Origin: Escherichia coli
Lineage (GTDB): Bacteria; Pseudomonadota; Gammaproteobacteria; Enterobacterales; Enterobacteriaceae
Assembly (NCBI RefSeq): GCF_003334785.1
Contig: NZ_QOWV01000008.1
DNA length: 64,000 bases
Direction: 5' to 3' (one strand)
A program made the translations under genes and the position numbers. Of the stretch, positions 7,432-62,734 are shown piece after piece (the stretch's first letter is position 1; every line of letters starts with the position of its first letter). The notes under the pieces are model-generated. The model was not told the origin of the DNA. It did not search any database and was given only the letters and a program-made list of their open reading frames with translations.

Positions 7432-8616
7432 CTAAATATCTTTAATAAACAGCAGGCAAATCATCGCAATACCCAACATCCCTATCGCCAGCCAGAACAA
7501 CGCATGGTAGCTCCAGATTTCAACCATAATTCCGTCAACAGAGCCGGCGATAATCCAGCCGACGCGTGAAGTATTTGCATATAACGTTGTCGCAGAGCCT
7601 ATTTTTTCAGGCATCAAGTCCTGAAAATAAAGCATGCCGATACCACAGAGAATACCAAGGAAGATGGCATTAAGAATTTGCAATTCCAGCTCAACCGCCG
7701 GAGTCGTCGCCATGAGTACGCTGGCGTAAAAACACATTCCACTCACGATAGCAATGAGCATTAATAGTCGCTTGCCAATACGTTTCATGTAATAGCCTGC
7801 GATTAACATCATCGGAATTTCCAGACCGGCAGCGATACCAATCATTTCTCCAGCCAGTTTATCGGTTAGATGCAGTTCATCAATAATAAATAGCGGCATA
7901 TTTATCATGTAGAGATTATTCGCCGCCCACATCATTGAACAGACCACAAAAAGTAGCCGCGTATCCCGCTTCCTGTGGGTGGAGGGTAAAATTTCTACGG
8001 GTTGGGTAACGACAGGAATATTTCTTTGTATTGATGGCAAAAACAACCAGACTATCAGTCCGCAAACAACAAATGCGATGGCAGCGGTGAGATACATCAC
8101 TTTAAAACTAAATCCCATTGCCAGTTCATAAGCGAGCGGTGGCCCGATAACCCAGGCAAGCGAGATCTGAGCACGTAAAAATGTACTGAACATGACCGTC
8201 TCACGGCCTGTTCTGTCGGCGTGTTCACGGGCGAGGGCGAACATTTGCGGGTTTGCGGTGGAAGCAAAACTACTCAGAAGTACGCCCGTTGAGAGGAGAA
8301 TGAAGTAGTTGCGATTCCACGCAAAAAGCGTGCAGGCCAGCACTCCAAATAAGCAACATAGCAGAATCAGTAATTTACGGTCGCCTTGTTTATCGGAGTG
8401 CCTTGCCAGAAATTGACTGACCAGAATTCCCATAATAGCGCTACCGGTGAAGAAAAAACCTACCATTATAGGACGGGCTTTCAGTTCATCTGCGAGGAAT
8501 ATACTTAGGGTAGGAGTCTGAAGAGCGCCCGCAATACCCGTCAGAAAGGCGACAAGTAAAAATGCCGCGGCAGTGAGATCAAGTATTTTTGATGGAGTGG
8601 TAGCCGTTTTTTGCAT
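7432..8616 (-). CDS. setC: MFS sugar efflux transporter SetC
   Basis: 394 aa, 12-TM MFS; neighbour of selC in E. coli. Confidence 0.8.
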   Translation of the reverse strand: MQKTATTPSKILDLTAAAFLLVAFLTGIAGALQTPTLSIFLADELKARPIMVGFFFTGSAIMGILVSQFLARHSDKQGDRKLLILLCCLFGVLACTLFAWNRNYFILLSTGVLLSSFASTANPQMFALAREHADRTGRETVMFSTFLRAQISLAWVIGPPLAYELAMGFSFKVMYLTAAIAFVVCGLIVWLFLPSIQRNIPVVTQPVEILPSTHRKRDTRLLFVVCSMMWAANNLYMINMPLFIIDELHLTDKLAGEMIGIAAGLEIPMMLIAGYYMKRIGKRLLMLIAIVSGMCFYASVLMATTPAVELELQILNAIFLGILCGIGMLYFQDLMPEKIGSATTLYANTSRVGWIIAGSVDGIMVEIWSYHALFWLAIGMLGIAMICLLFIKDI

Positions 8617-9248
8617 TCTTCTGAATCACCGGGCGAAAAAATATAACTGAGTTACAAATAAGTACCAGTCGAATGAGTATTGTATTAAGAATTTTTGAGT
8701 ATCGCTGATACAACCAGAAAGCAATGCTAGCGCAATATTATAGGGCCAGCAATTGAGATTATTAGTAAAAGCATGTTAAGAATTAATTACCGAATTTATA
8801 TATTAATTATAGTAAGGCAATGAGCTATTTTTGATAGTAAAAATAAAACAAGTTGATTTGATATATTAAATGAACAAATTAATCTTGATGGCAGTCTGAT
8901 TATTGGTGAAGTTTATAGTCAGTTTTTTTCGCCAGCGGTTAAAGAAATAGAATAGTCGTATAAAAAAGGGTGTTCTGGGGCGAGTAAAACAACATCTTCA
9001 CCTTAATGGCGATACAGTTGGCTGAGAGTCAGCAGGGGGGCAAATCACCTGCAAATAAACACGGCGCATACTGGCGTGAATATCGCGGATGCGTTCGAGG
9101 ACAGAAGAACCGACAGGCGGATTCTTCAGCCGCTCATCGTCCATCACAAAACCTTAGACCAGGTATTCCTGAAGCCGATTGAATATTGAGCAGTAGAAAA
9201 TATCTGGATTGACAGTATTACAAGGGGTTGGAGAACGTCAGGAGAGGC

Positions 9249-9273
9249 ATTTTGGCGGAAGATCACAGGAGTC
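9249..9273. repeat. attL core: duplicated 3' end of tRNA-Sec
   Basis: 25-nt attttggcggaagatcacaggagtc identical to 21074..21098; sequence diverges immediately on both sides. Confidence 0.85.
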
Positions 9274-9399
9274 AAAATTGACATATAACAATTTGATTCC
9301 AATCGTTTATATTTATCAGCTCTAATTCATTTATACACATCCTTATACACATAATATCTGTCGATTAATTTTTACACGTATCTTCACGCACGTTAACTC

Positions 9400-9700
9400 A
9401 GGAAAAAAATTTTTTTTCGAAAGAACTGTTCACACTGTTCACCTTTCTGTTTTCTCCTTTTATTTCAGTTTGATAGGTGGTGAATAATGGGTGAAGGGTG
9501 AACATTCGATTCTTCACCTCCGGCATTCTGCCGGTGTGACTTGTGCAGGGGATTAATCCTCCGCACTGAAATCACACAGGGAGAAAAAAGTTTTTTTGAT
9601 TTGATTGTTCATCTTTCGTTTTTCTCTTTTAATTTCAGTGTGATAACGGGTGAATATACGGTGAAGGGTGAACAGTGGATTGTTCACTTTCGGGGAATTC
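9400..9700. repeat. crr-like region: two ~120-bp direct repeats carrying TGTTCACC/GGTGAACA iterons
   Basis: Unit 1 about 9403..9525 and unit 2 about 9583..9700 share (a)8-9ttttttt...tgttca...tttctc...atttcagt.tgata..ggtgaa...ggtgaagggtgaaca; iteron motif matches the P4 alpha-binding repeats. Confidence 0.7.
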
Positions 9701-9705
9701 AGGGA

Positions 9706-9731
9706 TAAAAAAAGACCGGCAGATGCCGGTC
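9706..9731 (-). terminator. rho-independent terminator after alpha
   Basis: Minus-strand hairpin gaccggcatctgccggtc followed by TTTTTTTA, directly 3' of the alpha stop at 9739. Confidence 0.7.
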
Positions 9732-9738
9732 AGATGAG

Positions 9739-12072
9739 TCAGGCTGTTGCAGGGTCGTCACATTTCGGCAGCCAGTCGCCGTAGCTTTCCTCTTTCAGCG
9801 TCAGGTTGGTCTGTATCCCCTGTTTGGTATGGCGCTTCTCGTAATTCAGTCCGTATTCCTTCAGCATCACCGGCAGCCCCAGCCCGAACATTTTCAGACT
9901 GAGTACATTCCGGTAGCCGTTTGCCTCCATGTAGGCCAGATAGGCGTGATAGAGGTATTTACGGTAATTACGCGGGATGATACTGGCGTTCCCCATATAC
10001 ATGCCGCTGGTCTGCGGCAGGGTTTCCAGATAGCCGATAAAATCAAACGTCGGGTCGGCATCCCGTTTGATGTTCAGTGCCTCGTCTGAGTTCTGCTGGG
10101 ACTGAAGCAGTGACCGGGCGAGCATCGGGTCGCTGAACTTCTGCATCAGGTAACGCACGATGACCGCCAGCTCGCGGGTGATTTTGTCCTTAAGCTGCGG
10201 GTCGCGCTCCTGCGGGGCTATCTGTTCCGGGAAGTGAATAATCACCCGCCGGCGTGACACGCCGCCGCTGCGGTCGGTGAAGCGCATCGGGTTATTGTTC
10301 ACGGCCAGAATCACCGCCGGGATGTGCGTGGAGTACGCATCCCGGTATTTCGGGTCAACGGACACCGCATCGCCGCCGGTGATGGCCTTGAGTCCGGCAC
10401 CGTCGCCGCTCCATTTTTCCTGGTCCGGCAGGCGTATCAGTGAGAAGCCAGTTAACGCGGCACGTTCACGCGGGGATTCCAGCGTCTCGATGGTGGCCGA
10501 CGTGGCGTTATCCTCACCGGCCAGCAGGGTGGCTATTTCGGCCATGATACTTTTGCCGCTGCCGCCGGGACCGGTCACCTCCAGAAAGAGCTGCCAGTCG
10601 TAGCGGTTTGCCAGCACCATAAACAGTGCGGCCAGAATCACGTCGCGTTTTTCCGCACGGCCACCGGCGGCACGGTCAAGCCAGCGCCAGAATGCGGGGG
10701 CGTGGGTTTCCAGCGTTTCACCTTCCACCGGCGGGGTGAAATCCACATCGCACAGGGCGCGCATCCAGTGTGACGGACTGTGCGGGTGGAACGTGCCGTT
10801 CTGCGTGTCGAGCACGCCGTTACGAAAGCCAATCAGGCGGCGGGAGGGGGCTTCCTGCTGCGGAATAATCAGCTTCAGGGTGTCCACCACGGAGGCCACC
10901 TTCCCGGAGGAGAACGGCGCGCGCAGACGCTGAAACAGCCCGGCCACATCCCGGGCAAAGTCCTGTGGTGGCAGCACCTTCCAGACACCATTTTCATAGC
11001 GGGACAGAAGCTGGCCGTTGGCATCGACCGCGAGCGCCTCGCCGTAATGCTCATAGATACGCATGGCCTTTTCGCTGGTACTCATGGCGGAAAACTCCGC
11101 TTCGCTCATGGTGTCGAACGGGCTTTCAGCCGGTGGCCGGATGGCATCATAAATGGCCTTACGGGTGGTTTCCCCGCCGTACTGCGTGAAGGCATCATTC
11201 CAGTCACCGAAGACCGGCGGCAGGGCAACAACGCCCTCACACGCATCTGCGGCTGCGGCGGCTTTTTTCTGGCCGTCACCGCTGAGGTCACGGTCTGCGG
11301 CAAGGACAATCTGACAGGCCGGATGCTTCTGCCGGGCAAGGCTGGCCAGAGAAAGGAGGTTCACGGAAGAAAGCGCCACCATCACCGTTTCACCGGTCAG
11401 GTGATGTACGGTAAGTGCGGTCGCGTATCCCTCCGCTATCCACAGACGTTTTCCGGCCTGATTCTGTCCTTCAAGGGTGTGACAGGTGCCCCTGACCTGT
11501 CCGCCTTTCAGGGTGCGCTTACGGCCGTCAGCACTGATTAACTGAAGGTTAACCAGTTCGCCGCTGTCGTCATACAGTGGCACCACAAGGTCACCGGCGC
11601 GCCAGCTCACGCCACCGGCTCTGTGTGTGCCGGTCAGCATCCGGCATTCCCGGCCGGGAAAGCCCTTGCGGGTCAGGTAGGCGTTACCGGTTCCGGGACG
11701 GGTTTTCGCCATCAGGGTTTGTGCCAGTGCGGCGGCGTTCTTCCGGGCGGCTTCTGTTTCAGCACCGGCGGCGGCCGTCACTGCCGGGTCAGCCGGGGGC
11801 AGGCAGCCGGTCACGGCAGCCACCTTTGCGGCCGCGTCGGACGGGGAAACACCAAACACCTTTTCAACCAGTTTCAGGCCGTCACCGGCACCACACTGAT
11901 TGCAGTACCAGGTGCCGCGCCCCTCCCTGTCATCAAAACGGAAACGGTCACTTCCGCCACAGACCGGACAGGGCTGATGACGGTTTTTCAGCACCTGAAT
12001 CCCCAGCGACGGGAGAATACGCGGCCAGTGGCCGAGCGCATGGCTGACGGTGGCGGTTACGTTCATTTTCAT
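9739..12072 (-). CDS. P4 alpha-type primase/helicase
   Basis: 777 aa, the size of P4 alpha; N-terminal CPVCGG...CNQCG zinc-binding primase motif; Walker A GPGGSGKS in C-terminal half. Confidence 0.9.
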   Translation of the reverse strand: MKMNVTATVSHALGHWPRILPSLGIQVLKNRHQPCPVCGGSDRFRFDDREGRGTWYCNQCGAGDGLKLVEKVFGVSPSDAAAKVAAVTGCLPPADPAVTAAAGAETEAARKNAAALAQTLMAKTRPGTGNAYLTRKGFPGRECRMLTGTHRAGGVSWRAGDLVVPLYDDSGELVNLQLISADGRKRTLKGGQVRGTCHTLEGQNQAGKRLWIAEGYATALTVHHLTGETVMVALSSVNLLSLASLARQKHPACQIVLAADRDLSGDGQKKAAAAADACEGVVALPPVFGDWNDAFTQYGGETTRKAIYDAIRPPAESPFDTMSEAEFSAMSTSEKAMRIYEHYGEALAVDANGQLLSRYENGVWKVLPPQDFARDVAGLFQRLRAPFSSGKVASVVDTLKLIIPQQEAPSRRLIGFRNGVLDTQNGTFHPHSPSHWMRALCDVDFTPPVEGETLETHAPAFWRWLDRAAGGRAEKRDVILAALFMVLANRYDWQLFLEVTGPGGSGKSIMAEIATLLAGEDNATSATIETLESPRERAALTGFSLIRLPDQEKWSGDGAGLKAITGGDAVSVDPKYRDAYSTHIPAVILAVNNNPMRFTDRSGGVSRRRVIIHFPEQIAPQERDPQLKDKITRELAVIVRYLMQKFSDPMLARSLLQSQQNSDEALNIKRDADPTFDFIGYLETLPQTSGMYMGNASIIPRNYRKYLYHAYLAYMEANGYRNVLSLKMFGLGLPVMLKEYGLNYEKRHTKQGIQTNLTLKEESYGDWLPKCDDPATA

Positions 12073-16737: not shown

Positions 16738-16979
16738 TGCGCGCTTACTTAGATGCGTGAATTTATTTATATCACTGAAGTATATCCCTAAGCTCATTTC
16801 TCAAAGGGCCTATGGTTGCACAAGGTTGTACCATGGCATTCAAAACTTTTTAAACCAAGAATGACAATTTCATTATTAGGCCGGAATAGTTACTAATTTT
16901 AGTATAGGTTGCGATTGTTTAACGCATTTTTTATTATGATGCAGATTTTATTATTACTAATGGGGTGCAAAAAACACGT

Positions 16980-18269
16980 ATGAAAAAAAATGTTGGTAAC
17001 CGCAATAAAAATTCTGATGTGCTTATTCTTAAAGGTATGTTGAACAATTTAAAAGATGGTTTAAATAATTTTGAATTATTGCTTAAATTGCAGTTTAAAA
17101 TATTGGTGTGCGTGATGAGATGTGAGCGGAAAATTAAGTTTCTTAAAAAGAATAATGCTCATTTAAGGTCGGTGTTAAAAAAATCAAGACTTCCAAAAGA
17201 AAAATCTCTGGCAGTAAAAGAAAAAATTAAATACAATTCTGAAGTAATTACTGCTGAAAAATTCAAGATATATACGTATAAAATGTTTGGCGATGCTGTT
17301 GCATTTTTATACATCGATAAATATACAATTAAACAGTTATACTACAATGTACATAATTACAATGTTAAAGAAACGTCGGGGGATTTGAGCGGTAAGTCTG
17401 GATTGCGAGAGGAATGGGAATGCGTAAAACTTGCATGTGATAATAAAGTTCCAGCTCTGTTGCATGATATTACAATGAGTATAAGGCATGGAGATGTATC
17501 ACTTTTAGGTAAAGATGAGCCATTTATTATTGAGATGAAATCAAGCTCAAATACAAATAAGAGAGTTGAGCGGCAAAAATCTAACCTTGAAAAATTAGGA
17601 AGTTTCATAGCAAAAGACGAAGCTGAAAATTTTCGAGGGATTCCATTGTTAATCAGGAAAAATTTGTTAACTGAAGAGGAATCATATTCTCAGGTTTTAA
17701 ATGAGTGTCTTAATGATTGTCGCAGCAAAGGAATGGCTTTGGTTGAAGCTGAAAAAGGATTTTATATCTGCGCAGTTAGAGAAGGGAATATGGCTTCTAT
17801 GCTAGAAAATATAGATTTTGATGAAAAAAAAGAAGTTTTTCCTGTATTTCTCAATCAATATAAAAATAATGGGGAGTGGCTACCATTAACACCATTTACA
17901 CTATTAATTAACGATCCTTACGATCTCCATGATTTTATCGAAGGGGAATTAACAATAGCTTGTTTTTTAATGCTCGATGAATACAAAAAAATTGCTATAG
18001 AACTAGGCTATGAATTAGTTTTTGTTTCTAATGATGAATATAGTATCTTGTTAAAAAGAATTGGTGAAGATATTATATTTGGTGTTTCCTGGCAAATGTT
18101 GTTAAGAGTTCCATTAGAGATGATGTCCATGTCATGGTTGATAAAAGAAAGTATTAATATATATAGTAACTCCCTAGAAAATAGCACCCATAATGATGAA
18201 TTAAATCAGGGGCAGGGAAATACTAAAAATTCATTATTCGAAAAATACAAGAATTTATTTTCTTACTAA
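16980..18269 (+). CDS. hypothetical cargo protein A, possible PD-(D/E)xK nuclease
   Basis: ORF 16965..18269 (GTG) or ATG 16980; strongly AT-rich, Lys/Asn-rich; motif LHDITMSIRHGDVSLLGKDEPFIIEMK; no homologue recognised. Confidence 0.6.
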   Translation: MKKNVGNRNKNSDVLILKGMLNNLKDGLNNFELLLKLQFKILVCVMRCERKIKFLKKNNAHLRSVLKKSRLPKEKSLAVKEKIKYNSEVITAEKFKIYTYKMFGDAVAFLYIDKYTIKQLYYNVHNYNVKETSGDLSGKSGLREEWECVKLACDNKVPALLHDITMSIRHGDVSLLGKDEPFIIEMKSSSNTNKRVERQKSNLEKLGSFIAKDEAENFRGIPLLIRKNLLTEEESYSQVLNECLNDCRSKGMALVEAEKGFYICAVREGNMASMLENIDFDEKKEVFPVFLNQYKNNGEWLPLTPFTLLINDPYDLHDFIEGELTIACFLMLDEYKKIAIELGYELVFVSNDEYSILLKRIGEDIIFGVSWQMLLRVPLEMMSMSWLIKESINIYSNSLENSTHNDELNQGQGNTKNSLFEKYKNLFSY

Positions 18270-18370: not shown

Positions 18371-19744
18371 TTATCTAATATATTTTGTTACTTCCATATT
18401 ATCTTCATCGTCAAAAGAGTACTCAACCATCATACGACTATTTTTACCTGACTTAATATCTTGAAGCCAAGCTGAGGCAACCCTAGGGTCTAAATGCTGT
18501 TTTCTACTCAGCTCATTATTTTTTAGCCTATCAAGCCTTATTGCTCTTTGAAGAGTTTTATCGATGTAGTCTTCCAAATCAATGGACAACCTCCTTTTTG
18601 GATATAAATATTGGTATTCATCACACAATAGTACTCCTGGTAATTTAATTTCGCGTAGGTCGAAAGAATACCAACTATAGTTTTTAGACTCATTAGCTAA
18701 TTCCGAAACTAGATGAGCCCCATTTTGTTGTAAGAGAGATATTTTGTGATCGATGCTAATGTCAGATATTTCTCTTAAAGACTCAAAATGCATGTTTTCG
18801 TAGATAGTATTTAATAAAATACTCTCCATGTAAGAGTAAAAATCAGTACCATCGATGATAATATTAGTTTCATTGTAGACTGCAAGAGACATAAGATATA
18901 TGAAGAAAACTGCGGGAGTACTATTACCTCTGTTTATATCAAGTCTAAGGGAGTTGACATAATCAGGCGGAGAGTTTGAGAAAATTTCTCTTATTAACCA
19001 GTCTGGAATAGTGGTTCTTGTTAGAATGTCAGCGTTCAAACTTGAACGACATAAAAAAATACACATCTTTAATTTTAATTTTATTGAAAATGATGGGAAT
19101 AAATGATCGATGAAAGATAAAATACATGTATACTCTGCTAAGTCTGTTTGTTGCAACTTTTCTTTTATTTCATTTTCAAGCATTTTTAATTTAAAAAAAT
19201 CATTCCTTTTTTCTAATATTTCCCAATGAAATAATTGCTCCTGAGCGTACGCATGCCCCTCTAAAATAGCTAGCATGCTTAAAGGAATGTTTAGGATTTC
19301 TTGATAATTATTAACATACCCAAAGAAATGGACTCTGATATACACACCCATATCGTCATCATATTGTAATGATGCTTTAATATTTTTATAATTTAATTTA
19401 TTAGTGCTGTTGTTTTTGAAGTGATAATGTAAAGTAATTTCAGTATCATCAACTAATAAATTATCAAAAGCCTCCTTTGTTTCATATTTAAAATAGTTAT
19501 ATAGCCGACATGAATAATTTAACCCCCAGTGAGTTGTAGAACAATCAAGTAAATGGATTGTTTCATGGAGATATGTTTTATAAAATTCAATTTCGCTATC
19601 ATCAAAATCATATATGCTTTTACTGTCTATGATATTTTGTGCTTGCGGTAAACTTATATTTAATTCATCGTTTGAAATCTCAATTAAATGTGATGAAAAA
19701 TCATAAGAACCCAATGTTTTGCTGTTAAATATACATCCGCTCAT
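18371..19744 (-). CDS. hypothetical cargo protein B, HExxH motif (possible zinc metallopeptidase)
   Basis: 457 aa, AT-rich; N-terminal YLHETIHLLDCSTTH; start ATG overlaps the integrase stop (ATGA at 19741..19744). Confidence 0.6.
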   Translation of the reverse strand: MSGCIFNSKTLGSYDFSSHLIEISNDELNISLPQAQNIIDSKSIYDFDDSEIEFYKTYLHETIHLLDCSTTHWGLNYSCRLYNYFKYETKEAFDNLLVDDTEITLHYHFKNNSTNKLNYKNIKASLQYDDDMGVYIRVHFFGYVNNYQEILNIPLSMLAILEGHAYAQEQLFHWEILEKRNDFFKLKMLENEIKEKLQQTDLAEYTCILSFIDHLFPSFSIKLKLKMCIFLCRSSLNADILTRTTIPDWLIREIFSNSPPDYVNSLRLDINRGNSTPAVFFIYLMSLAVYNETNIIIDGTDFYSYMESILLNTIYENMHFESLREISDISIDHKISLLQQNGAHLVSELANESKNYSWYSFDLREIKLPGVLLCDEYQYLYPKRRLSIDLEDYIDKTLQRAIRLDRLKNNELSRKQHLDPRVASAWLQDIKSGKNSRMMVEYSFDDEDNMEVTKYIR

Positions 19745-20916
19745 AGCAAATCCCCTAAAAGATAATCAGAGTACCATTGAATCATCGTTTTCCTTTGAGA
19801 AAAATATTGTGCGTGATTATAGGTTCCTCGGATATTGTTCTTATCAACATGTGCTAATTGCATTTCAATCCAGGTACTATCAAATCCCTGTTCATGTAGG
19901 ATTGTTGACATTGTATGTCTAAAACCGTGACCTGTAGCACGTCCTTTGTAACCAAGTAACTCAATCACTTGTGAAACACTTTCTTTTGAAATTGGTTTGC
20001 TACGATTGTTCCTGCCAATAAAAATATAGGGATAATGGCCGGTGATAGGCTTTAGCTGTTTAAAGAGGTCTACCACCTGAGTAGACAAAGGTACAATATG
20101 TGGTCTGCGCATTTTCATACGTTCCGCTGGTATCTCCCATATACCTTTTTCGAGGTCTACTTCTTCCCACGTAGCAAAGCGCATCTCCTGCGTTCTTACA
20201 CCAGTCAGCATGACTATCTTCGTAGCATTTTTGGTGATGATGCTACCGGTATAAGCTTCGAGATCCCGAATAAAATGAGGCAATTCTTCGGCAGATAGAA
20301 ATGGATGATGTTTTTGCTTAGGAACGGCCAGAGCGATGGCTAAATCAGGCGCAGGATTGTATTCAGCGCGGCCAGTTATGATTGCGTAGCGATAAACCTC
20401 ACCGCACCTCTGACGTACCTTACGTGTTTTCTCTAGTGCTCCACGCTTCTCTATTCGTCGCAACACTTCAAGAAGTTCTAAGGGTTTGATTTCACTAATA
20501 GGACGTTTACCAATGAACGGGAAAACATCTTGCTCAAATGTTTTAATAATTTCTTCGCGGTAGGCAAGTGTCCAGCGATCGGCTTTATTTGAGTGCCACT
20601 CACGACATATAGCCTCGAATGAGTTTTCTGTTGAGAGCTGCTGTGCCAGCTTTTGGGCTTTACGTTCTTCCACTGGGTCTATGCCGTTTGCAACCTGCTT
20701 CCGAGCTGTATCGCGTTTCTCACGTGCTTCAGCTAGGCTCACAAGGTCGTAGCTACCAAATGACATTAACCGCGCTTTTCCGGCAAAGCGGAAACGGAAA
20801 CGCCAGCCCTTCGAGCCATCGGGATTGATAAGCAATGACAGGCCCTGCCCGTCGTTCAATGTGTATGGCTTGTCTTGGGGCTTTGCTCGTTTGATTTGTA
20901 TATCTGTAAGTGCCAT
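19741..20916 (-). CDS. int: P4-family tyrosine integrase
   Basis: 391 aa; N-terminus MALTDIQIKRAKPQDKPYTLNDGQGLSLLINPDGSKGWRFRFRFAGK typical of P4-type integrases; C-terminal catalytic region with HGFRHT...Y; adjacent to the tRNA. Confidence 0.9.
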   Translation of the reverse strand: MALTDIQIKRAKPQDKPYTLNDGQGLSLLINPDGSKGWRFRFRFAGKARLMSFGSYDLVSLAEAREKRDTARKQVANGIDPVEERKAQKLAQQLSTENSFEAICREWHSNKADRWTLAYREEIIKTFEQDVFPFIGKRPISEIKPLELLEVLRRIEKRGALEKTRKVRQRCGEVYRYAIITGRAEYNPAPDLAIALAVPKQKHHPFLSAEELPHFIRDLEAYTGSIITKNATKIVMLTGVRTQEMRFATWEEVDLEKGIWEIPAERMKMRRPHIVPLSTQVVDLFKQLKPITGHYPYIFIGRNNRSKPISKESVSQVIELLGYKGRATGHGFRHTMSTILHEQGFDSTWIEMQLAHVDKNNIRGTYNHAQYFSQRKTMIQWYSDYLLGDLL

Positions 20917-21073: not shown

Positions 21074-21098
21074 ATTTTGGCGGAAGATCACAGGAGTC
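21074..21098. repeat. attR core overlapping the 3' end of selC
   Basis: Same 25-nt sequence as 9249..9273. Confidence 0.85.
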
Positions 21099-21172
21099 GA
21101 ACCTGCCCGGGACCGCTGGCGGCCCCAACTGGATTTGAAGTCCAGCCGCCTCACCGGAGACGACGATCTTCC
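21078..21172 (-). tRNA. selC: tRNA-Sec (selenocysteine, UCA anticodon)
   Basis: Reverse complement reads ggaagatcgtcgtctccggtgaggcggctggacttcaaatccagttggggccgccagcggtcccgggcaggttcgactcctgtgatcttccgcca, the 95-nt E. coli selC sequence. Confidence 0.95.
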
Positions 21173-21464
21173 GCGCCTCGATTGCTACATGGAGGCGGGG
21201 CGCATTATAGCTACTTCCTTGAGTTTCTACATCCCCCAGATCAGTTTTTTCCGCCTAATACACGCAGCGTATTATCACGAAAGCATTATAGTTCATATAA
21301 AATCCATATTTTACAATGATATATGAGCGGAATTAACGCTACCACGATCACATAAAACAAGAATCATAAATTAATAACCAGATATCGGAATATTCGCTCT
21401 CACAGGGATGGTTTACAAAATGCGTTATCGGTCTCAGCACCCCTATAGCATCAAGGAAAAGTAG

Positions 21465-48854: not shown

Positions 48855-49201
48855 AATAAATAGCTGACTTATGGATGTGCTGGGGATTCTATGTATTTAG
48901 CACCGGGTTTGCCATTACTTTTCCTTTTTTTGACTTAATTAGCCTCTGTTTGAGCTGATCTGCCGCTAGATCTTCATTTTTTTTGTATTTTTATGCGATT
49001 CATTGAATTTCAGCCAGGATTGCAGCTTTACATCGACAATATCTGGATTCTCGAGTATGCAAAATTTTATCTCTATGATTTTTATAATTAAAACATATTT
49101 TGTGTATAAAAATCATTCGGGTCGGATTGCTGCGAAAGAAATGATACACTAGCGCGTCAAAGTAAGTGCGTTATCAGTATTCGGGTAGCTGTTGAGCCTG
49201 G

Positions 49202-49213
49202 GGCGGTAGCGTG
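49202..49213 (+). promoter_or_regulatory. ops element (RfaH recruitment) in the waaQ leader
   Basis: Exact ggcggtagcgtg ~50 bp upstream of the waaQ start. Confidence 0.8.
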
Positions 49214-49260
49214 CTTTTTTCTGCTTAACTTAACCAGACAATCACACAAAAGAGTCGCTA

Positions 49261-50331
49261 GTGGAAAAGCCATTTCGAAAAATCCTGGTCATAAAGATGC
49301 GATATCACGGAGATATGTTATTAACTACTCCTGTAATCAGTACACTCAAGCAGAATTATCCCGACGCAAAAATCGATATGCTGCTTTACCAGGATACAAT
49401 TCCGATTTTATCTGAAAACCCAGAAATTAATGCACTCTATGGTATAAGCAATAAAGGTACGGGAACATTCGATAAAATTAAAAATGCACTTTCACTGATA
49501 AAAACTCTGCGTGCGAATAATTACGACCTGGTCATTAATCTTACGGATCAGTGGATGGTGGCCCTGCTGGTACGTTGTTTACCTGCTCGTATGAAAATAT
49601 CGCAGCTTTATGGTCATCGGCAGCATGGCATTTGGAAAAAAAGCTTTACACACTTAGCGCCTATACACGGTACACATATTGTTGAGCGTAATTTGTCGGT
49701 CCTTGAGCCATTAGGTATTACCGATTTTTATACTGAAACAACCATGAGTTACGCCGAGGATTGCTGGAAGAAAATGCGCCAGGAATTAGATGCACTGGGC
49801 GTGAAAGATCATTATGTCGTCATCCAGCCGACAGCCAGACAGATATTTAAGTGCTGGGACAACGATAAATTTTCTATGGTTATCGATGCGTTGCAACATC
49901 GTGGTTATCAGGTTGTGCTGACTTGTGGCCCTTCGGCAGATGATCTCGCTTGCGTAGATGAAATTGCACGAGGCTGCCAAACAAAACCTATTACCGGCCT
50001 TGCCGGTAAAACACGTTTTCCTGAACTGGGCGCATTAATTGATCATGCAGTGCTCTTTATTGGTGTGGATTCTGCGCCGGGGCATATTGCAGCGGCTGTG
50101 AAGACGCCAGTTATTAGCCTGTTTGGGGCCACTGATCATGTATTCTGGCGTCCATGGACCGAGAATATTATTCAGTTCTGGGCGGGGAATTATCAAAAAA
50201 TGCCTACCCGGCACGAACTTGACCGCAACAAAAAATATCTTTCTGTTATTCCAGCGGAAGATGTCATTGCCGCTACGGAAAAGCTGTTGCCAGAAGATGC
50301 ACCTTCAGCTGACAGGAATGCGCAATTATGA
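49261..50331 (+). CDS. waaQ: LPS heptosyltransferase III (GT9)
   Basis: 356 aa from GTG; FRKILVIKMRYHGDMLLTTPV aligns with N-termini of WaaC/WaaF. Confidence 0.8.
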   Translation: MEKPFRKILVIKMRYHGDMLLTTPVISTLKQNYPDAKIDMLLYQDTIPILSENPEINALYGISNKGTGTFDKIKNALSLIKTLRANNYDLVINLTDQWMVALLVRCLPARMKISQLYGHRQHGIWKKSFTHLAPIHGTHIVERNLSVLEPLGITDFYTETTMSYAEDCWKKMRQELDALGVKDHYVVIQPTARQIFKCWDNDKFSMVIDALQHRGYQVVLTCGPSADDLACVDEIARGCQTKPITGLAGKTRFPELGALIDHAVLFIGVDSAPGHIAAAVKTPVISLFGATDHVFWRPWTENIIQFWAGNYQKMPTRHELDRNKKYLSVIPAEDVIAATEKLLPEDAPSADRNAQL

Positions 50332-51452
50332 TCGTGGCATTTTGCTTATATAAATATTTTCCATTTGGTGGGCTACAGCGTGACTTTATGCGTATTGCCT
50401 CAACAGTTGCCGCACGGGGCCACCATGTTCGGGTATATACACAGTCGTGGGAAGGCGATTGCCCGGAAGCATTTGAGCTTATTCGCGTACCGGTTAAATC
50501 CCATACTAACCATGGACGTAATGCAGAATATTATGCCTGGGTTCAAAACCATCTGAAGGCACATCCCGCTGATCGCGTTGTTGGCTTTAATAAGATGCCT
50601 GGGCTGGATGTTTATTTTGCCGCCGATGTCTGTTATGCCGAGAAAGTGGCGCAAGAAAAGGGATTTTTCTATCGTTTAACATCGCGCTATCGCCATTATG
50701 CTGCATTCGAGCGAGCGACTTTCGAACATGGTAAATCGACGAAACTTATGATGTTGACCGATAAGCAAATCGCCGATTTTCAGAAGCATTACCAAACTGA
50801 ACCAGAACGTTTTCAAATTCTTCCCCCTGGTATCTATCCTGACAGAAAATACAACGCGCAAATCCCAAACAGTCGTGAAATTTATCGCCAGAAAAATGGC
50901 ATCACTGAACAACAAAACTTATTGCTGCAGGTTGGTTCAGATTTTGGTCGTAAAGGTGTGGATCGCTCAATTGAAGCTTTGGCATCGTTACCAGAATCGT
51001 TACGCCATAATACGTTGTTGTTTGTTGTTGGCCAGGATAAACCGCGTAAATTTGAAGTGCTGGCAGAAAAACTCGGTGTGCGTAGTAAAGTGCATTTCTT
51101 TTCCGGGCGGAATGATGTGTCTGAATTAATGGCAGCCGCTGATTTATTAATGCATCCCGCTTATCAGGAGGCTGCAGGTATTGTTCTCCTTGAGGCAATT
51201 GCCGCGGGATTACCTGTGTTGACGACTGCGGTATGCGGATACGCACACTATATCACAGATGCTAATTGTGGAACGGTCATCGCTGAACCTTTCTCCCAGG
51301 AACAATTAAATGACGTTTTACGTAAAGCGTTAACTCAATCTCCATTGCGCATGGCCTGGGCGGAGAATGCTCGGTATTACGCCGATACTCAGGATTTATA
51401 CAGCCTGCCGGAGAAAGCGGCAGATATCATTACAGGTGGTTTAGATGGTTGA
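50328..51452 (+). CDS. waaG: LPS glucosyltransferase I (GT4)
   Basis: 374 aa, GT4 E-x7-E motif, position after waaQ. Confidence 0.85.
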
Positions 51453-52242
51453 ATTAGAAGAGCCACTTGCCACACTCTGGCGTGGTAAAGATGCCTTTGC
51501 AGAAGTTAAAAAACTGAATGGCGAGGTCTTCCGTGAACTGGAGACGCGTCGCACATTACGCTTTGAACTGGCCGGCAAAAGTTATTTCCTCAAATGGCAC
51601 AAAGGGACGACCCTAAAGGAGATTATAAAAAATCTGCTCTCATTGCGGATGCCCGTTTTAGGTGCAGACAGAGAGTGGCACGCTATTCATCGACTGCATG
51701 ATGTCGGTGTTGATACGATGCACGGAATAGGATTTGGTGAAAAAGGGTTAAATCCATTAACTCGCACATCATTTATTATTACCGAAGATCTCACTCCCAC
51801 AATTAGCCTTGAAGATTATTGTGCAGATTGGGCGGTCAACCCGCCTGATGTACATATTAAGCGTATGCTGATCGCGCGTGTGGCAACCATGGTGCGCAAA
51901 ATGCATGCAGCAGGGATTAATCACCGTGATTGTTATATCTGCCACTTTTTACTCCATTTGCCATTTACTGGCCGGGAAGATGAATTAAAAATTTCGGTTA
52001 TCGATCTGCACCGGGCACAGATACGTGCAAAAGTACCACGTCGTTGGCGGGATAAAGATTTGATTGGTTTATATTTCTCATCAATGAATATTGGTCTGAC
52101 GCAGAGAGATATCTGGCGATTTATGAAGGTTTATTTTGGGATGCCTTTACGCGATATTTATAGACTTGAGATTGATTTACTTAAAAAGGCAAGGATTAAA
52201 GCAGGAAAAATAGAAGCAAGAACAATAAGAAAAAACTTGTAA
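51445..52242 (+). CDS. waaP: LPS core heptose(I) kinase
   Basis: 265 aa kinase-like protein, overlaps waaG stop. Confidence 0.85.
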
Positions 52243-52274
52243 ATAGTATTTTATTACAAAAAGGGATTCTAAAA

Positions 52275-53255
52275 TTGTTGAAATATAGAAACTTCGTTGC
52301 TAAGAAGAAAAATTTATACCAAAACGAAGTGTCGTATGTTAAAAATTTACATATTGCACTATGCTTTGACCGTGAATTCATAATGCCAGCGGGTGTTGCA
52401 TTATATTCAATTATATCCAACAATAGACATATTAACCTTCATTTTCACCTTCTTATATCAGGCATAGAAGAAAAGGAGTGTTCAGCTTTTTACGAACTAG
52501 AAGGTCCTAATACATCAATATCTGTATATTATATAACTGATAAATTTGACATTAATCCGGATACATTAGTTCTTGGTATTCCTTTATCAACATGTTTACG
52601 TTTTTTAATCCCAGAAGTTATTGATGATAAAATAAATAAGATACTTTATCTTGACTGTGATGTCATATGTAATGGTCCTTTAGATGAACTGGTTGATTAT
52701 AATTTAAATGCTGATATTGCATGTGTAATTCCAGATTCGCCAGAAATGCAAGAACGTGTAAAAAAATTAGACTATGGCATTGAGTTTATTAATTATTTTA
52801 ATGCCGGGGTTATGTTTATTAATACCAGCGAATGGAAAAAAAATAATATAACACAAAAAGCGTTAGAAATGATCAACAGTGGAAAAGTATATAGGTATGC
52901 AGATCAGGATGTGCTCAATATTTTACTTAATGGACGAGTGCATTACCTTGATAAGAAGTACAATAATAAGACAACATTGTCAGTACGATGTGATGAAGAA
53001 CAAAAAAACTTGCCCAACACAATTATAATGCATTATGTTACCCAGAATAAACCATGGTACAAAATATTTAGAGCACAAAATTTTGATCATTATTTTTCAA
53101 ATTCTCCTTGGAAGAACCATAAAAGAAATCTAGCTCCATCATCAAGTGAGATTAGGTTAAAGTCTAAAGTTTTTTGGCTAGAAGGAAAATATTGTAAAGC
53201 CATTTCTTATTATTATAAGTATTTACTTGTTAAATTATTTGGCTTAAAGATTTAG
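52275..53255 (+). CDS. GT8-family LPS core glycosyltransferase (waaS position)
   Basis: 326 aa, AT-rich; GT8 motifs YLDCDVIC, FNAGVMFIN, HYVTQNKPW; identity within the waa family not resolved. Confidence 0.6.
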   Translation: MLKYRNFVAKKKNLYQNEVSYVKNLHIALCFDREFIMPAGVALYSIISNNRHINLHFHLLISGIEEKECSAFYELEGPNTSISVYYITDKFDINPDTLVLGIPLSTCLRFLIPEVIDDKINKILYLDCDVICNGPLDELVDYNLNADIACVIPDSPEMQERVKKLDYGIEFINYFNAGVMFINTSEWKKNNITQKALEMINSGKVYRYADQDVLNILLNGRVHYLDKKYNNKTTLSVRCDEEQKNLPNTIIMHYVTQNKPWYKIFRAQNFDHYFSNSPWKNHKRNLAPSSSEIRLKSKVFWLEGKYCKAISYYYKYLLVKLFGLKI

Positions 53256-53268
53256 CTGGAATGAAATT

Positions 53269-54348
53269 ATGAAAATAGCCTTTATTGGCGAAGCTGTTTC
53301 TGGATTTGGCGGCATGGAAACAGTCATTCGTGATGTTATTACTACCTTCAGGCAACAACATATCCAAAGTGAAATTTTTTTCTTTTGTCGTAATGACAAA
53401 ATGGATAAGGGATGGCTGGAAGGTATTAAGTACTCGTGTTCATTTTCCAATATTCGCTTAGGTTTTTTGCGTCGCGCGAAACATATTCATGCTTTAAGCA
53501 AATGGCTTCATGATTATCAGCCAGATGTTGTTATTTGTATTGACGTGATCTCGTGTTTGTATGCGGCCAAAGCTCGTAAAAAATCGGGGATTGATGTACC
53601 TGTATTTTCATGGCCGCATTTTTCTTTAGATCATAAAAAACATGCCGAATATATCACCTGTGCCGACTATCATTTAGCCATCAGCTCTGGTATTAAACAG
53701 CAAATGATTAGCCGGGGTGTACCAGAATCGACAATAAACGTTATTTTTAATCCCGTTGAGGCGAAAAATTCAGTCATTCCTGCACCCGGGGAAGGCGAAA
53801 CGGCAACATTCATTTATGTTGGGCGCATGAAATTTGAAGGCCAAAAGCGCGTAAAAGATCTGCTTGATGGCTTATCACAAGTGCAAGGTGACTGGAAACT
53901 TCATGTATTGGGAGATGGCTCCGATTTCGAAAAATGCCAGGCTTATGGTAGAGGATTAAATATTGATGATCGAATTGTCTGGTATGGTTGGCAACAACAT
54001 CCCTGGAAATTAGTTCAGCAAGATATTAAAAAAGTGAGTGCATTATTACTCACGTCATCTTTTGAAGGTTTCCCAATGACTCTACTTGAAGCCTTGTCGT
54101 GGGGGATCCCTTGTATCAGTGCAGATTGTGTCTCCGGGCCTGTTGATATCATTCAGCCTGATGTTAATGGTCATTTATATCAACCGGGGGATATGACCGG
54201 TTTTGTTGCTCTTCTCAATAAATACATAGCCGGTGAAATTCACATCGCACATGAAAAAATTCCGGCGTCGATCGATAAATTTTATCAACCGAAATATTAC
54301 GACAGATTGCAAAAGATAATTATTTCTGTTATTTCCCGGAGGAAATAA
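53269..54348 (+). CDS. waaB: LPS 1,6-galactosyltransferase (GT4)
   Basis: 359 aa MKIAFIGEAVSGFGGMETVIRDVITTFRQQ, recalled as WaaB. Confidence 0.8.
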   Translation: MKIAFIGEAVSGFGGMETVIRDVITTFRQQHIQSEIFFFCRNDKMDKGWLEGIKYSCSFSNIRLGFLRRAKHIHALSKWLHDYQPDVVICIDVISCLYAAKARKKSGIDVPVFSWPHFSLDHKKHAEYITCADYHLAISSGIKQQMISRGVPESTINVIFNPVEAKNSVIPAPGEGETATFIYVGRMKFEGQKRVKDLLDGLSQVQGDWKLHVLGDGSDFEKCQAYGRGLNIDDRIVWYGWQQHPWKLVQQDIKKVSALLLTSSFEGFPMTLLEALSWGIPCISADCVSGPVDIIQPDVNGHLYQPGDMTGFVALLNKYIAGEIHIAHEKIPASIDKFYQPKYYDRLQKIIISVISRRK

Positions 54349-55367
54349 TGCAGCAGGTTTTTTTCCAGGAGACTGAGTTTCTCAATTCGGTTATTGATTA
54401 TAATCATAAAATAGAAGCAGAAAATCTTTGTCTGGATATTGCTTATGGGACTGACAAAAATTTTCTTTTTGGATGCGGAATATCGATTGCTTCAATATTA
54501 AAATATAATGAAGGAAATCAATTATGCTTTCATATTTTTACTGATTATTTCGGTGATGACGATCGCAAATATTTTGATGCCCTGGCCAGGCAATATAAAA
54601 CAAGAATTAAGATATATTTAATTAATGGTGATCGACTCCGTTCATTACCCTGCACCAAGAACTGGACTCATGCTATTTATTTTCGTTTTGTTATCGCCGA
54701 TTACTTTTTTAATAAAGCACCCAAAGTTCTTTATCTGGATGCAGATATTATTTGTCAGGGAACTATAGAACCACTTATCAATTACACGTTTTCTGAACAT
54801 ACAGTCGCAATGGTTGTTACAGAAGGACAAAAAGACTGGTGGGCAAAACGTGCTCATTCGTTAGGTGTTGCTGGGATTGCTAATGGTTACTTTAACTCCG
54901 GTTTTTTACTGATTAATACTAATCAATGGACGAATGAGCGGGTTTCTGCACGGGCCATTGCAATGTTAAGTGATCCAGAGATAGTCAAAAAAATAACACA
55001 TCCTGATCAGGATGTATTAAATATGTTATTGGCAGACAAACTTGTTTATGCTGATATTAAATATAACACTCAGTTTAGTTTAAATTATCAACTAAAAGAA
55101 AGTTTTAAAAACCCAGTAACTAACGATACAGTTTTTATTCATTATATTGGTCCAACTAAACCCTGGCATGACTGGGCCTGGGATTATCCAATATCACAAG
55201 CTTTTATGGCGGCAAAAAATGCTTCACCATGGAAGGATACTGCGTTATTGAAACCGGTTAATAGTAATCAATTAAGATACAGTGCTAAACATATGTTGAA
55301 AAAAAAGCAATATATCAAAGGATTTGGCAACTATCTTTTGTATTTTATAAAAAAGCTAAAGCATTAA
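54348..55367 (+). CDS. waaO: LPS alpha-1,3-glycosyltransferase (GT8), WaaO/WaaI type
   Basis: 339 aa, GT8 motifs YLDADIIC, FNSGFLLIN, HYIGPTKPW; follows waaB. Confidence 0.65.
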   Translation: MQQVFFQETEFLNSVIDYNHKIEAENLCLDIAYGTDKNFLFGCGISIASILKYNEGNQLCFHIFTDYFGDDDRKYFDALARQYKTRIKIYLINGDRLRSLPCTKNWTHAIYFRFVIADYFFNKAPKVLYLDADIICQGTIEPLINYTFSEHTVAMVVTEGQKDWWAKRAHSLGVAGIANGYFNSGFLLINTNQWTNERVSARAIAMLSDPEIVKKITHPDQDVLNMLLADKLVYADIKYNTQFSLNYQLKESFKNPVTNDTVFIHYIGPTKPWHDWAWDYPISQAFMAAKNASPWKDTALLKPVNSNQLRYSAKHMLKKKQYIKGFGNYLLYFIKKLKH

Positions 55368-55530
55368 TACTGATAATCTATACTCTAAATAATTCGAGTT
55401 GCAGGACAAAAAGCCAGTGGCGTTTTGAGGAACGCTTGCGTTGGCCCTGAAATGCCGAGTAACTCGCCGATGCAGCACATGCAACTTGAAGTATAACGAG
55501 TATATAAAGTAATGATATAAGGATAGCCTT

Positions 55531-56547
55531 GTGAACTCATTTCCTGCCATAGAGATAGATAAAGTTAAAGCCTGGGATTTTAGGCTTATTGATGAAAATA
55601 CTGCTGAAAGTTTAAATGTTGCCTATGGTGTCGATTCCAATTATCTTGATGGTGTAGGTGTTTCCATTACTTCAATTGTCATTAATAATCGACATGTTAA
55701 TCTTGATTTTTATATTATTGCTGATGTTTATAACGACGATTTCTTTCAAAAAGTTGAGAAACTTGCTGAGCAATACCAATTAAGAATCACACTTTATAGA
55801 ATAAATACTGATAATCTTCAGTGCCTGCCTTGTACACAAGTCTGGTCAAGAGCAATGTACTTCCGTTTATTTGCTTTTCAATTATTGGGAGTAACACTTA
55901 ATCGTTTGCTTTATCTTGATGCCGATGTAGTTTGTAAGGGAAATATTAGTCAACTATTGCATTTAGAGTTTAATGGAGCGGTGGCTGCAGTAGTCAGGGA
56001 TGTAGACCCAATGCAGGAAAAGGCGGTAGTCAGATTATCTGATCCTGAACTTCGGGGGCAGTATTTTAATTCTGGTGTCGTTTACTTAGACCTAAAAAAA
56101 TGGACAGAAGCAAAACTAACCGAAAAAGCACTGTCTATTCTTATGAGTAAAGATAGTATTTATAAGTATCCTGACCAGGACGTTATGAATGTCCTACTAA
56201 AAGGGATGACAATATTCCTGCCACGTGAGTTCAATACTATATATACAATAAAAAGTGAGTTAAAAGATAAAACGCATCAAAAATATAAAGAGTTGATAAA
56301 AGAGGATACTCTTCTTATTCATTATACTGGGGCCACCAAGCCGTGGCACAAATGGGCAATTTATCCATCGGTAAAATACTATAAAATAGCTTTAGAAAGA
56401 TCCCCCTGGAAAGATGACTCACCACGAGATGCAAAATCAATTATTGAATTCAAAAAAAGATATAAACATCTGTTAGTGCAACATCATTATATCTCAGGAC
56501 TCATTGCAGGAGTGTGTTATCTTTGCCGAAAATATTACCGTAAATAA
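55531..56547 (+). CDS. waaJ: LPS alpha-1,2-glycosyltransferase (GT8), WaaR/WaaJ type
   Basis: 338 aa, GT8 motifs YLDADVVC, FNSGVVYLD, HYTGATKPW. Confidence 0.6.
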   Translation: MNSFPAIEIDKVKAWDFRLIDENTAESLNVAYGVDSNYLDGVGVSITSIVINNRHVNLDFYIIADVYNDDFFQKVEKLAEQYQLRITLYRINTDNLQCLPCTQVWSRAMYFRLFAFQLLGVTLNRLLYLDADVVCKGNISQLLHLEFNGAVAAVVRDVDPMQEKAVVRLSDPELRGQYFNSGVVYLDLKKWTEAKLTEKALSILMSKDSIYKYPDQDVMNVLLKGMTIFLPREFNTIYTIKSELKDKTHQKYKELIKEDTLLIHYTGATKPWHKWAIYPSVKYYKIALERSPWKDDSPRDAKSIIEFKKRYKHLLVQHHYISGLIAGVCYLCRKYYRK

Positions 56548-56564
56548 CATTTAACTGGTTTAAC

Positions 56565-57263
56565 ATGATTCAGAAGAATAAAATCAAAGATTTAGTTGTT
56601 TTTACCGATGAAAATAACTCAAAGTATCTCAATGTATTAAATGACTTTCTTTCTTATGATATTAATATCATCAAAGTTTTTCGTTCTATAGATGATACAA
56701 AAGTCATGCTTATTGATACCGATTACGGTAAATTGATACTTAAAGTTTTTTCGCCTAAAGTAAAACGCAACGAACGTTTCTTTAAATCTCTTTTAAAGGG
56801 AGATTATTATGAACGCCTTTTTGAGCATACTCAAAAAGTGCGTAACGAGGGGCTACATTCTCTCAATGATTTTTATTTGTTGGCAGAACGGAAAACATTA
56901 CGTTTTGTCCATACTTATATCATGCTTATCGAATATATCGATGGCGTAGAGTTGTGTGATATCCCCGATATTGATGAAACTTTAAAAAATAAAATTCAAC
57001 AATCAATTCGTTCATTACACGAACACGGTATGGTATCTGGTGATCCTCACCGCGGTAATTTTATTATTGAAAATGGTGAAGTACGCATTATTGATCTTTC
57101 AGGAAAACGGGCATCTGCACAACGTAAAGCGAAAGATCGTATTGATTTAGAGCGACATTATGGTATTAAGAATGAGGTTAAAGATCTCGGTTATTATCTT
57201 TTAGTTTATCGTAAAAAAATACGTAATCTTATGCGGCGTTTGAAAGGGAAGCCAGCACGATAA
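56565..57263 (+). CDS. waaY: LPS core heptose(II) kinase
   Basis: 232 aa, kinase-like (GDPHRGNFII), position. Confidence 0.75.
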   Translation: MIQKNKIKDLVVFTDENNSKYLNVLNDFLSYDINIIKVFRSIDDTKVMLIDTDYGKLILKVFSPKVKRNERFFKSLLKGDYYERLFEHTQKVRNEGLHSLNDFYLLAERKTLRFVHTYIMLIEYIDGVELCDIPDIDETLKNKIQQSIRSLHEHGMVSGDPHRGNFIIENGEVRIIDLSGKRASAQRKAKDRIDLERHYGIKNEVKDLGYYLLVYRKKIRNLMRRLKGKPAR

Positions 57264-57334
57264 AGTAAAAGTCTTACATTTAAACGTCTTCGTCAGGACA
57301 TTTCTATGCGGAGTTCTTATTTCACAGGTTTATC

Positions 57335-58144
57335 ATGAAGAATATTAGATACATTGACAAAAAAGATGTTGAAAACCTGATAGAAAGTAAAACGTCTGAT
57401 GATGTTATTATTTTTCTTTCCGGCCCCACATCGCAAAAAACACCATTGTCAGTGCTGCAGACAAGGGATGTTATTGCTGTCAATGGTTCTGCACAATATC
57501 TATTAAGTCATAATATTATTCCCTATATTTATGTACTTACCGATGTTCGCTTTTTACATCAACGGCGTGATGATTTTTATAAATTTAGCCAGAGAAGTCG
57601 TTATACCATCGTAAATGTTGACGTTTATGAACATGCTTCTGAAGAAGATAAGCGGTACATCCTTCAAAACTGCCTGGTACTACGTTCATTTTACCGCAGA
57701 GAAAAAGGTGGATTGATCAAGAAGATCAAGTTTAATATTTTGAGCCGAATTCATAAAGAGCTCCTGATCTCTGTACCTTTTTCTAAAAAAGGTCGTCTGG
57801 TTGGCTTTTGCAAGGATATTAACCTCGGTTATTGTTCATGCCATACCGTTGCTTTTGCTGCAATCCAAATAGCCTATTCGCTGAAGTATGCTCGTATTAT
57901 CTGTTCAGGCCTTGATTTAACGGGTAGCTGTTCGCGTTTCTATGATGAAGATAAGAATCCTATGCCCTCAGAGTTGATTCGGGATTTATTCAAAATTTTA
58001 CCATTTTTCCGTTTTATGCGTGAAAATATAGAAGATATCAATATTTATAATTTATCCGACGATACTGCAATTCAATATGATATTATTCCCTATATGAAAA
58101 TATCCGAAATTGAAGAGCCGTGTGTTTATGAAAAAATAAGCTAA
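57335..58144 (+). CDS. waaZ: LPS core biosynthesis protein (WaaZ position)
   Basis: 269 aa, AT-rich, between waaY and the terminal GT4 gene. Confidence 0.55.
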   Translation: MKNIRYIDKKDVENLIESKTSDDVIIFLSGPTSQKTPLSVLQTRDVIAVNGSAQYLLSHNIIPYIYVLTDVRFLHQRRDDFYKFSQRSRYTIVNVDVYEHASEEDKRYILQNCLVLRSFYRREKGGLIKKIKFNILSRIHKELLISVPFSKKGRLVGFCKDINLGYCSCHTVAFAAIQIAYSLKYARIICSGLDLTGSCSRFYDEDKNPMPSELIRDLFKILPFFRFMRENIEDINIYNLSDDTAIQYDIIPYMKISEIEEPCVYEKIS

Positions 58145-58196
58145 TATTTTATATGTGTTTATTACGTGTTATAAATTATATTGGAGTTGGCTAATA

Positions 58197-59339: not shown

Positions 59340-59357
59340 AAATTATTGGATTTGAAG

Positions 59358-59394
59358 AGCCTGCCTGAACTTAATGTCAGGCAGGCTTTTTTTT
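59358..59394. terminator. bidirectional terminator between waaK and waaL
   Basis: agcctgcctgaacttaatgtcaggcaggct hairpin followed by TTTTTTTT; overlaps waaL stop. Confidence 0.7.
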
Positions 59395-60610: not shown

Positions 60611-60648
60611 TGCTTCTCCACCATCTTAAATAATATATAACGTATTAA

Positions 60649-61605: not shown

Positions 61606-61608
61606 CCG

Positions 61609-62655: not shown

Positions 62656-62734
62656 TCACTTCATCCTTCAAGCTGTCTCTGCGGCGGCTGCCTGCGTTCA
62701 CTCCGGTCACTTACTTTTGTAAGCTCCCGGAGAT

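Follow-up and report, generated by a model that had tools for sequence, protein, structure and literature searches.

A K-12-type selC-setC spacer with a promoter island and a rhuM remnant beside a P4-like satellite in Escherichia coli

Spacer, att core and P4-like satellite

The window analysed here is a stretch of 64,000 nucleotides from an Escherichia coli genome (contig NZ_QOWV01000008.1), in which a spacer separates setC from one of two copies of a direct repeat. The features that delimit the spacer and the element beside it are listed below.

7432 to 8616, minus strand: setC, encoding a sugar efflux MFS transporter of 394 aa (open reading frame and annotation)
8617 to 9248, no strand: selC-setC spacer of the K-12 type (K-12 identity and genome counts)
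9249 to 9273, no strand: tRNA-distal att core at the satellite junction, duplicating part of the selC 3' end (exact 25-bp repeat)
9739 to 12072: satellite alpha primase gene (PHROGs)
19741 to 20916, minus strand: satellite integrase gene, next to selC (PHROGs)
21074 to 21098, no strand: att core inside intact selC, next to the integrase gene (exact 25-bp repeat)
21078 to 21172, minus strand: selC (tRNA-Sec), the only tRNA gene in the window, overlapping the second att copy at its 3' end

The left edge of the spacer is the setC ATG at 8616 on the minus strand and the right edge is the att core, a 25-bp exact direct repeat (ATTTTGGCGGAAGATCACAGGAGTC) located at 9249-9273 and again at 21074-21098; both edges had been placed correctly in the initial annotation. 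The native intergenic region between selC and setC is 636 bp long (8617-9252), as it is in K-12. Located between the repeats were genes for the alpha primase, a repressor-like protein, Sid-, delta- and Psu-like proteins and the integrase, as classified with PHROGs, and the element is a P4-like satellite. The repeat covers the last 21 nt of selC and brackets an 11.8-kb element with the integrase gene next to the intact tRNA gene, as in P4-family attB sites at tRNA 3' ends. The copy at 9249-9273 is the partial one, distal to the tRNA gene and the integrase gene, and the term attL that had been applied to it is a mere label of left position. The core at 9249-9273 fixes the exact boundary of the satellite.

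The region 8560-9273 was identical at every base to K-12 MG1655 (NC_000913.3) and to strain S3. The window is oriented as the reverse complement of the K-12 nlpA-yicL-setC-selC-yicJ region, and the K-12 counterpart of the native spacer is NC_000913.3 3836317-3836952 (100% identity), where the K-12 annotation holds selC, the yicT pseudogene, setC and nothing more. The earlier description of the spacer as native sequence beside selC, into which the satellite had inserted, holds given this identity through the att core. Among 5426 complete E. coli genomes, 3619 carried at least 80% of the spacer, 3722 at least 80% of setC and 378 at least 80% of the spacer-satellite junction seen here. The 25-bp repeat, the P4-like gene set and the unoccupied site of K-12 and S3, whose sequence is the same up to the core, together identify the spacer as the flank of an attB site. 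On sequence comparison it is pre-existing K-12-type backbone and not satellite DNA.

The spacer directly abuts the satellite att core, and the satellite end (9274-9450) is AT-rich too, as might be expected if the spacer belonged to the satellite or had arrived with it, for instance in the role of att arm or regulatory end. There is practically no chance that this is so, as the same sequence lies beside selC in K-12 and S3 with no satellite there, the match to K-12 breaks off at the last base of the core (9273), after which K-12 continues into selC and the window into the satellite, and the junction is found in 378 genomes compared with 3619 for the spacer. An origin with the satellite was rejected on the alignment to K-12, which is identical through the att core. 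In comparison with P4-family attB sites the spacer is the bacterial flank only and gave no sign of a role in recombination. The P4-like satellite would have used the selC 3'-end att site at a later time, pushing selC 11.8 kb away, and the spacer would be the bacterial flank of the tRNA-distal junction, neither brought nor needed by the satellite. The flank of this satellite junction is therefore standard K-12 backbone that can be annotated cleanly, with no new element to seek.

Several other observations were made within the satellite and at the same att position in another strain. Immediately downstream of the alpha primase gene (9425-9693) were two 88-nt direct repeats, 170 bp apart and 81% identical, each with TGTTCACC/GGTGAACA octamers in both orientations; this looks like the cis replication region (crr) of the satellite and resembles the crr of P4. 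Two low-GC cargo ORFs were located between psu and the integrase gene, one of 434 aa at 16965-18269 (plus strand), which matched only phrog_14906, a PHROG of unknown function, and one of 457 aa at 18371-19744 (minus strand), which had no PHROG match; neither matched PADLOC. In P4-like elements, the position between psu and the integrase gene is a known variable hotspot for defence genes. Strain RIVM_C037166 (locus L006, 3294-5629) carried a different island end at the same att position, including DUF4942, DUF957, DUF5983 and a CbtA/YeeU-type toxin-antitoxin pair. This selC site is thus used by elements of several kinds.

Base composition and the rhuM relic

GC content was 29.9% in 8617-8960 and 48.3% in 8961-9248, relative to a mean of 48.1% for the 64-kb window, and only 3.5% of the 344-bp windows of the 64 kb matched the AT-richness of 8617-8960. 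The spacer included six runs of 5 to 7 A or T bases. The initial annotation had called the whole spacer strongly AT-rich, which is accurate for the setC-proximal 55% but not for the remainder. It had also stated that no ORF of 60 aa or more was present; this is true, the longest ORF within 8617-9248 being 58 aa, but carries little information since 1231 of 2000 composition-preserving shuffles of the same region (62%) likewise lacked such an ORF. The spacer is a mosaic of two unrelated pieces, an AT-rich block at approximately 8617-8960 and a GC-normal block at approximately 8961-9252. The second of these contains the following features.

9007 to 9174, minus strand: decayed internal fragment of rhuM (tblastn, Pfam and annotation)
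9013 to 9144, minus strand: equivalent of the K-12 pseudogene yicT (b4653) (K-12 annotation)
9013 to 9174, minus strand: PGAP pseudogene "RhuM family protein", flagged "internal stop; incomplete" with both ends missing
9175 to 9248, no strand: short remainder separating the rhuM fragment from the selC 3' end; no other stretch varies more among E. coli alleles

The segment 9007-9174 corresponds to yicT (b4653) at the same place beside selC, and PGAP applies the RhuM family pseudogene label here in thousands of genomes. In a tblastn comparison of the intact 345-aa LF82 RhuM with the window, residues 121-187 aligned to 9174-9007 with 61% identity (E 3e-19), and relative to the LF82 protein the frame is interrupted by one in-frame stop and lacks 8 codons at one place and 3 at another. 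The conceptual translation matched Pfam Virulence_RhuM PF13310 (E 4.1e-10) at model positions 52-98 of 252. The fragment thus combines a PF13310 match with a disrupted and truncated frame, as expected of a RhuM-family pseudogene, and this pseudogene had been overlooked when the spacer was described as ORF-free. Compared with intact LF82 rhuM, the window keeps about 56 codons with the N- and C-terminal parts lost, has a DNA identity of approximately 75% and is non-functional. A literature search for "yicT" returned nothing relevant.

Divergence of the rhuM fragment among four diverged alleles was 3.6-6.0%, and that of setC third codon positions was 1.0-4.8%. The divergence of the fragment therefore equals or exceeds that of synonymous sites, as a pseudogene would show. 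The fragment and its flanks differed from the window by 3.6-10.9%, except for two short flanks that were identical in the closest allele (L007), and divergence of the AT-rich block among the alleles was 2.0-3.2%.

The selC-yicL locus of strain LF82 (L003, 2324-4480) has an intact 345-aa rhuM next to selC. It is without setC and the AT-rich block and carries a gene for a hypothetical protein of 165 aa instead, and homology to the window resumes at three places only: the 5' end of yicL, the rhuM fragment (approximately 75% DNA identity) and the last 15 bp before selC. By blastn, 9238-9276 of the window matched L003 4466-4504 with 97% identity, and 9238-9248 match sequence upstream of the intact LF82 rhuM. 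On either side of the LF82 rhuM lie the selC 3' end and, at L003 3252-3286, a degenerate copy of that end, which reads GAGGCATTTTGGCG and ATCACAGGAGTCG joined across a 4-bp deletion. Such an arrangement is what an old integration at selC leaves behind. Unlike LF82, the K-12-type spacer had no further degenerate copy of the selC 3' end. Intact-length rhuM was found in 843 of the 5426 complete E. coli genomes; this set and the 3722 genomes with setC were counted separately, and the replacement of setC by rhuM was inspected in LF82 alone. The rhuM gene of Salmonella SPI-3 is linked to selC as well.

The GC-normal block would therefore represent, on this comparison, the neutrally decaying remnant of an older element once integrated at selC, of which an internal rhuM (yicT) fragment survives. 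Together with the satellite this points to selC as an integration site used repeatedly. All components of the locus have been described before: the sequence is that of K-12, the pseudogene is annotated as yicT/RhuM, the H-NS data accompany the catalogue of promoter islands, and P4-family integrases are known to use tRNA 3' ends. Mildly new is only the view that the "native" flank itself consists of island relics stacked at selC.

The AT-rich block upstream of setC

The setC-proximal half of the spacer includes the following features.

8630 to 8960, no strand: AT-rich "promoter island" upstream of setC (GC 29.9%; mapping to a published K-12 island)
8737 to 8765, minus strand: best candidate promoter of the sigma-70/sigma-S type facing setC, CTAATA and TATAAT with a 17-nt spacer (loose consensus scan)
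8625 to 8630, minus strand: Shine-Dalgarno-like GGTGAT, 8 nt upstream of the setC ATG (read from the sequence)

The GGTGAT element is complementary to the 3' end of 16S rRNA.

Panyukov and Ozoline (PLoS One 2013; PMC3661553) catalogued 78 "promoter islands" in K-12. One of them, at 3834632-3834962 (331 bp), is listed as "selC(+)/setC(+), intergenic", is tied in Table 1 to a gene predicted to be foreign and is marked "A" in the same table, denoting H-NS binding in all of the ChIP studies compared (Grainger, Kahramanoglou and Oshima) (PMC3661553). The coordinates of the catalogue follow the older U00096.2 numbering and were converted to NC_000913.3 with an offset of 1977, which was checked at istR/tisB. 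The value of the offset was derived from the change in K-12 genome length between U00096.2 and NC_000913.3. With this offset and the 100% identity to K-12, the island maps 14-344 bp upstream of the setC ATG, that is to 8630-8960 of the window, which places this segment among the 78 catalogued intervals. The mapped edge coincides with the compositional break found independently at approximately 8960.

The segment is the same sequence as the K-12 island (3834632_331 of Shavkunov, Panyukov and Ozoline), being 100% identical; it is AT-rich and crowded with promoter-like hexamers, the catalogue lists H-NS binding for it, and the neighbouring gene is predicted to be foreign. It differs in context only, as the P4-like satellite here separates the block from selC. 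The initial annotation had suggested that the spacer could hold binding sites for nucleoid proteins, and this was a correct guess that had already been published, the island being H-NS-bound in K-12 (PMC3661553). As evidence against its reading it had named a full alignment with the K-12 intergenic sequence together with no transcription or binding signal; the alignment was indeed full, but a binding signal exists in the literature. Binding of H-NS and RNA polymerase is taken here from that literature on the identical K-12 sequence, and H-NS binding was measured in K-12, whereas in the window the satellite lies 290 bp from the AT-rich block. The AT-rich half of the spacer accordingly corresponds to a promoter island that precedes setC and is catalogued as H-NS-bound. 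This locus was unmentioned in two other promoter-island papers, one of which (PMC11661796) disputes the role of H-NS in keeping such islands silent.

Genomic SELEX from the Ishihama laboratory placed a peak of RpoS holoenzyme at 3834856 and a peak of RpoH holoenzyme at 3834954 (PMC5493296), both in U00096.2 numbering, which correspond to approximately 8736 and 8638 of the window. The spacer is the only DNA upstream of setC and contains both peaks, in agreement with the earlier statement that it includes the setC promoter region. Two perfect TATAAT hexamers were located on the setC strand (8742-8737 and 8811-8806), the first of which is the -10 element of the best candidate, lies 121 bp upstream of the setC ATG and coincides with the RpoS peak. 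Promoter-like sites occurred on both strands of the spacer in the loose scan, no such site was found on the setC strand in the strict consensus scan and no mapped transcription start site of setC was found. The ROSE in-vitro transcription supplement had no entry for setC, selC or yicT. The hexamers and TATAAT sites are putative assignments read from the sequence.

A count of loose hexamer pairs gave 11 sites in the island compared with a mean of 2.6 per 331 bp of the window (97th percentile), a crude count that differs from the PlatProm scoring of the catalogue. Composition-matched shuffles had 8.6 +/- 2.8 loose promoter-like sites and 23% of them reached 11. The density of promoter-like sites is thus not above that of the shuffles, which suggests that the "island" property follows from AT content. 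The strict consensus scan returned one site, with counts at or below the shuffle expectation, and a search of the spacer for the H-NS motif TCGATAAATT gave only two 8-of-10 matches.

Such figures are what would be seen if the spacer were functionless filler, its AT-rich block a compositional residue of horizontal transfer to which RNA polymerase and H-NS bind passively because of AT content and without regulatory consequence, with setC read by read-through or from a trivial promoter. The motif density equal to that of the shuffles, the IS1 insertions tolerated inside the spacer in several genomes, the third or so of E. coli genomes that are without most or all of the block and the disputed silencing of promoter islands by H-NS (PMC11661796) are all in keeping with this, but we consider it unlikely. 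The setC-proximal 250 bp (8617-8866) had 6 variable columns across five alleles, compared with setC third codon positions that were about 4.7% from the window in three of the four comparison alleles, a weak contrast given the small numbers. Deletion of setC in K-12 MG1655 raises intracellular arabinose (PMC3429515), which implies that setC is expressed at some level and that some working promoter activity must lie upstream. The satellite moreover separates setC from selC, and with a strong terminator past the alpha gene the spacer is the only plausible source of a promoter. That terminator is a strong intrinsic-terminator-like hairpin (GACCGGCATCTGCCGGTC followed by TTTTTTT) at about 9705-9733 on the minus strand, directly past the alpha primase stop codon. 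As it faces the spacer and setC, it should block read-through from the satellite toward setC.

The reading that we prefer is that the spacer is an unmodified K-12-type selC-setC region consisting of a setC upstream block that binds H-NS and RNA polymerase and a dead rhuM remnant, with a probability of about 0.8. The identity of the two parts, setC upstream AT-rich DNA and dead rhuM DNA, is very likely to be correct. The AT-rich block would serve to regulate the accessory gene setC from upstream, as published for promoter islands, and its GC content of about 30% would give rise to the many -10-like and -35-like hexamers through which it may bind RNA polymerase. It presumably contains one or more weak or silenced setC promoters. 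H-NS would then coat the block and hold setC low, possibly with a bias toward stationary phase or stress, and such silencing is likely the mechanism that keeps setC expression low. Both this silencing of setC from the spacer and the choice of the true promoter hexamers are what we infer from the published binding data and the sequence. The block resembles regions subject to xenogeneic silencing in that it is AT-rich, precedes an accessory gene and is occupied by H-NS according to published data, and differs from them in that no derepression of setC in hns mutants and no mapped nucleation site were found; a literature search for setC expression in hns mutants returned nothing relevant.

Small-RNA signals and neighbouring AT-rich DNA

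The spacer had also been suggested to hold small RNAs, and an unannotated small RNA or small protein acting on setC or the satellite could be envisaged in 632 bp without an annotated function that binds RNA polymerase in vitro (PMC5493296) and has promoter-like sites on both strands. Promoter islands are also reported to yield short abortive oligonucleotides (PMC3661553). An Rfam scan of 8400-9800 with E values up to 10 gave no match in the spacer, the only hits being chance matches to eukaryotic families that were outside the spacer or far below threshold. Fold z-scores of 26 sliding 120-nt windows on both strands were unremarkable, ranging from -1.7 to +1.35 with none lower, and a terminator scan of the spacer detected one weak 5-pair stem only, inside the rhuM fragment. 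In the closely curated K-12 record the spacer is given neither an RNA gene nor one for a small protein, although small proteins of the Ribo-seq era such as yicU are annotated nearby, and the K-12 Term-seq supplement lists a 3' end for selC only, with none assigned to setC or yicT. Neither a family match, nor an unusually stable structure, nor a convincing terminator was therefore found in the spacer, and the variation among alleles revealed no sharply conserved island beyond the general conservation near setC. The suggestion was left unsupported by these searches, and a small RNA or protein is very improbable.

A further reading concerns the order in which the flank was assembled and its effect on the satellite. 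The flank could be layered, with a rhuM islet followed by setC and the AT-rich block, which replaced the distal part of the islet, and then by the satellite, and the H-NS-coated block, approximately 290 bp from the crr end, could nucleate the spreading of H-NS or insulate transcription. If this were so, replication or induction of the satellite might be affected, or setC might be decoupled from selC and from satellite read-through. We regard this proposal as improbable and favour the unmodified K-12-type region described above.

Across selC, the yicJ-selC spacer (21173-21464) is AT-rich too. The sigma-70 holoenzyme SELEX paper (PMC3946193) records its K-12 counterpart as a constitutive-promoter site of sigma-70 that also has an H-NS site; this is the only spacer beside selC to appear there, setC being unmentioned and the selC-setC spacer not listed. 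Insertions of IS1 were present in the AT-rich selC-setC spacer of several E. coli genomes, and the AT-rich block seems to tolerate IS1 as an insertion. In strain Z142-6 (locus L008, 4056-6400) two copies flank a truncated integrase fragment, an arrangement that starts 55 bp upstream of setC. Long low-GC stretches were also present at approximately 49000-63700, with windows of at most 32% GC clustered at 52-60 kb and coinciding with a run of co-oriented ORFs. By synteny with K-12 this region should be the waa LPS-core cluster, which in K-12 has several other catalogued promoter islands (PMC3661553).
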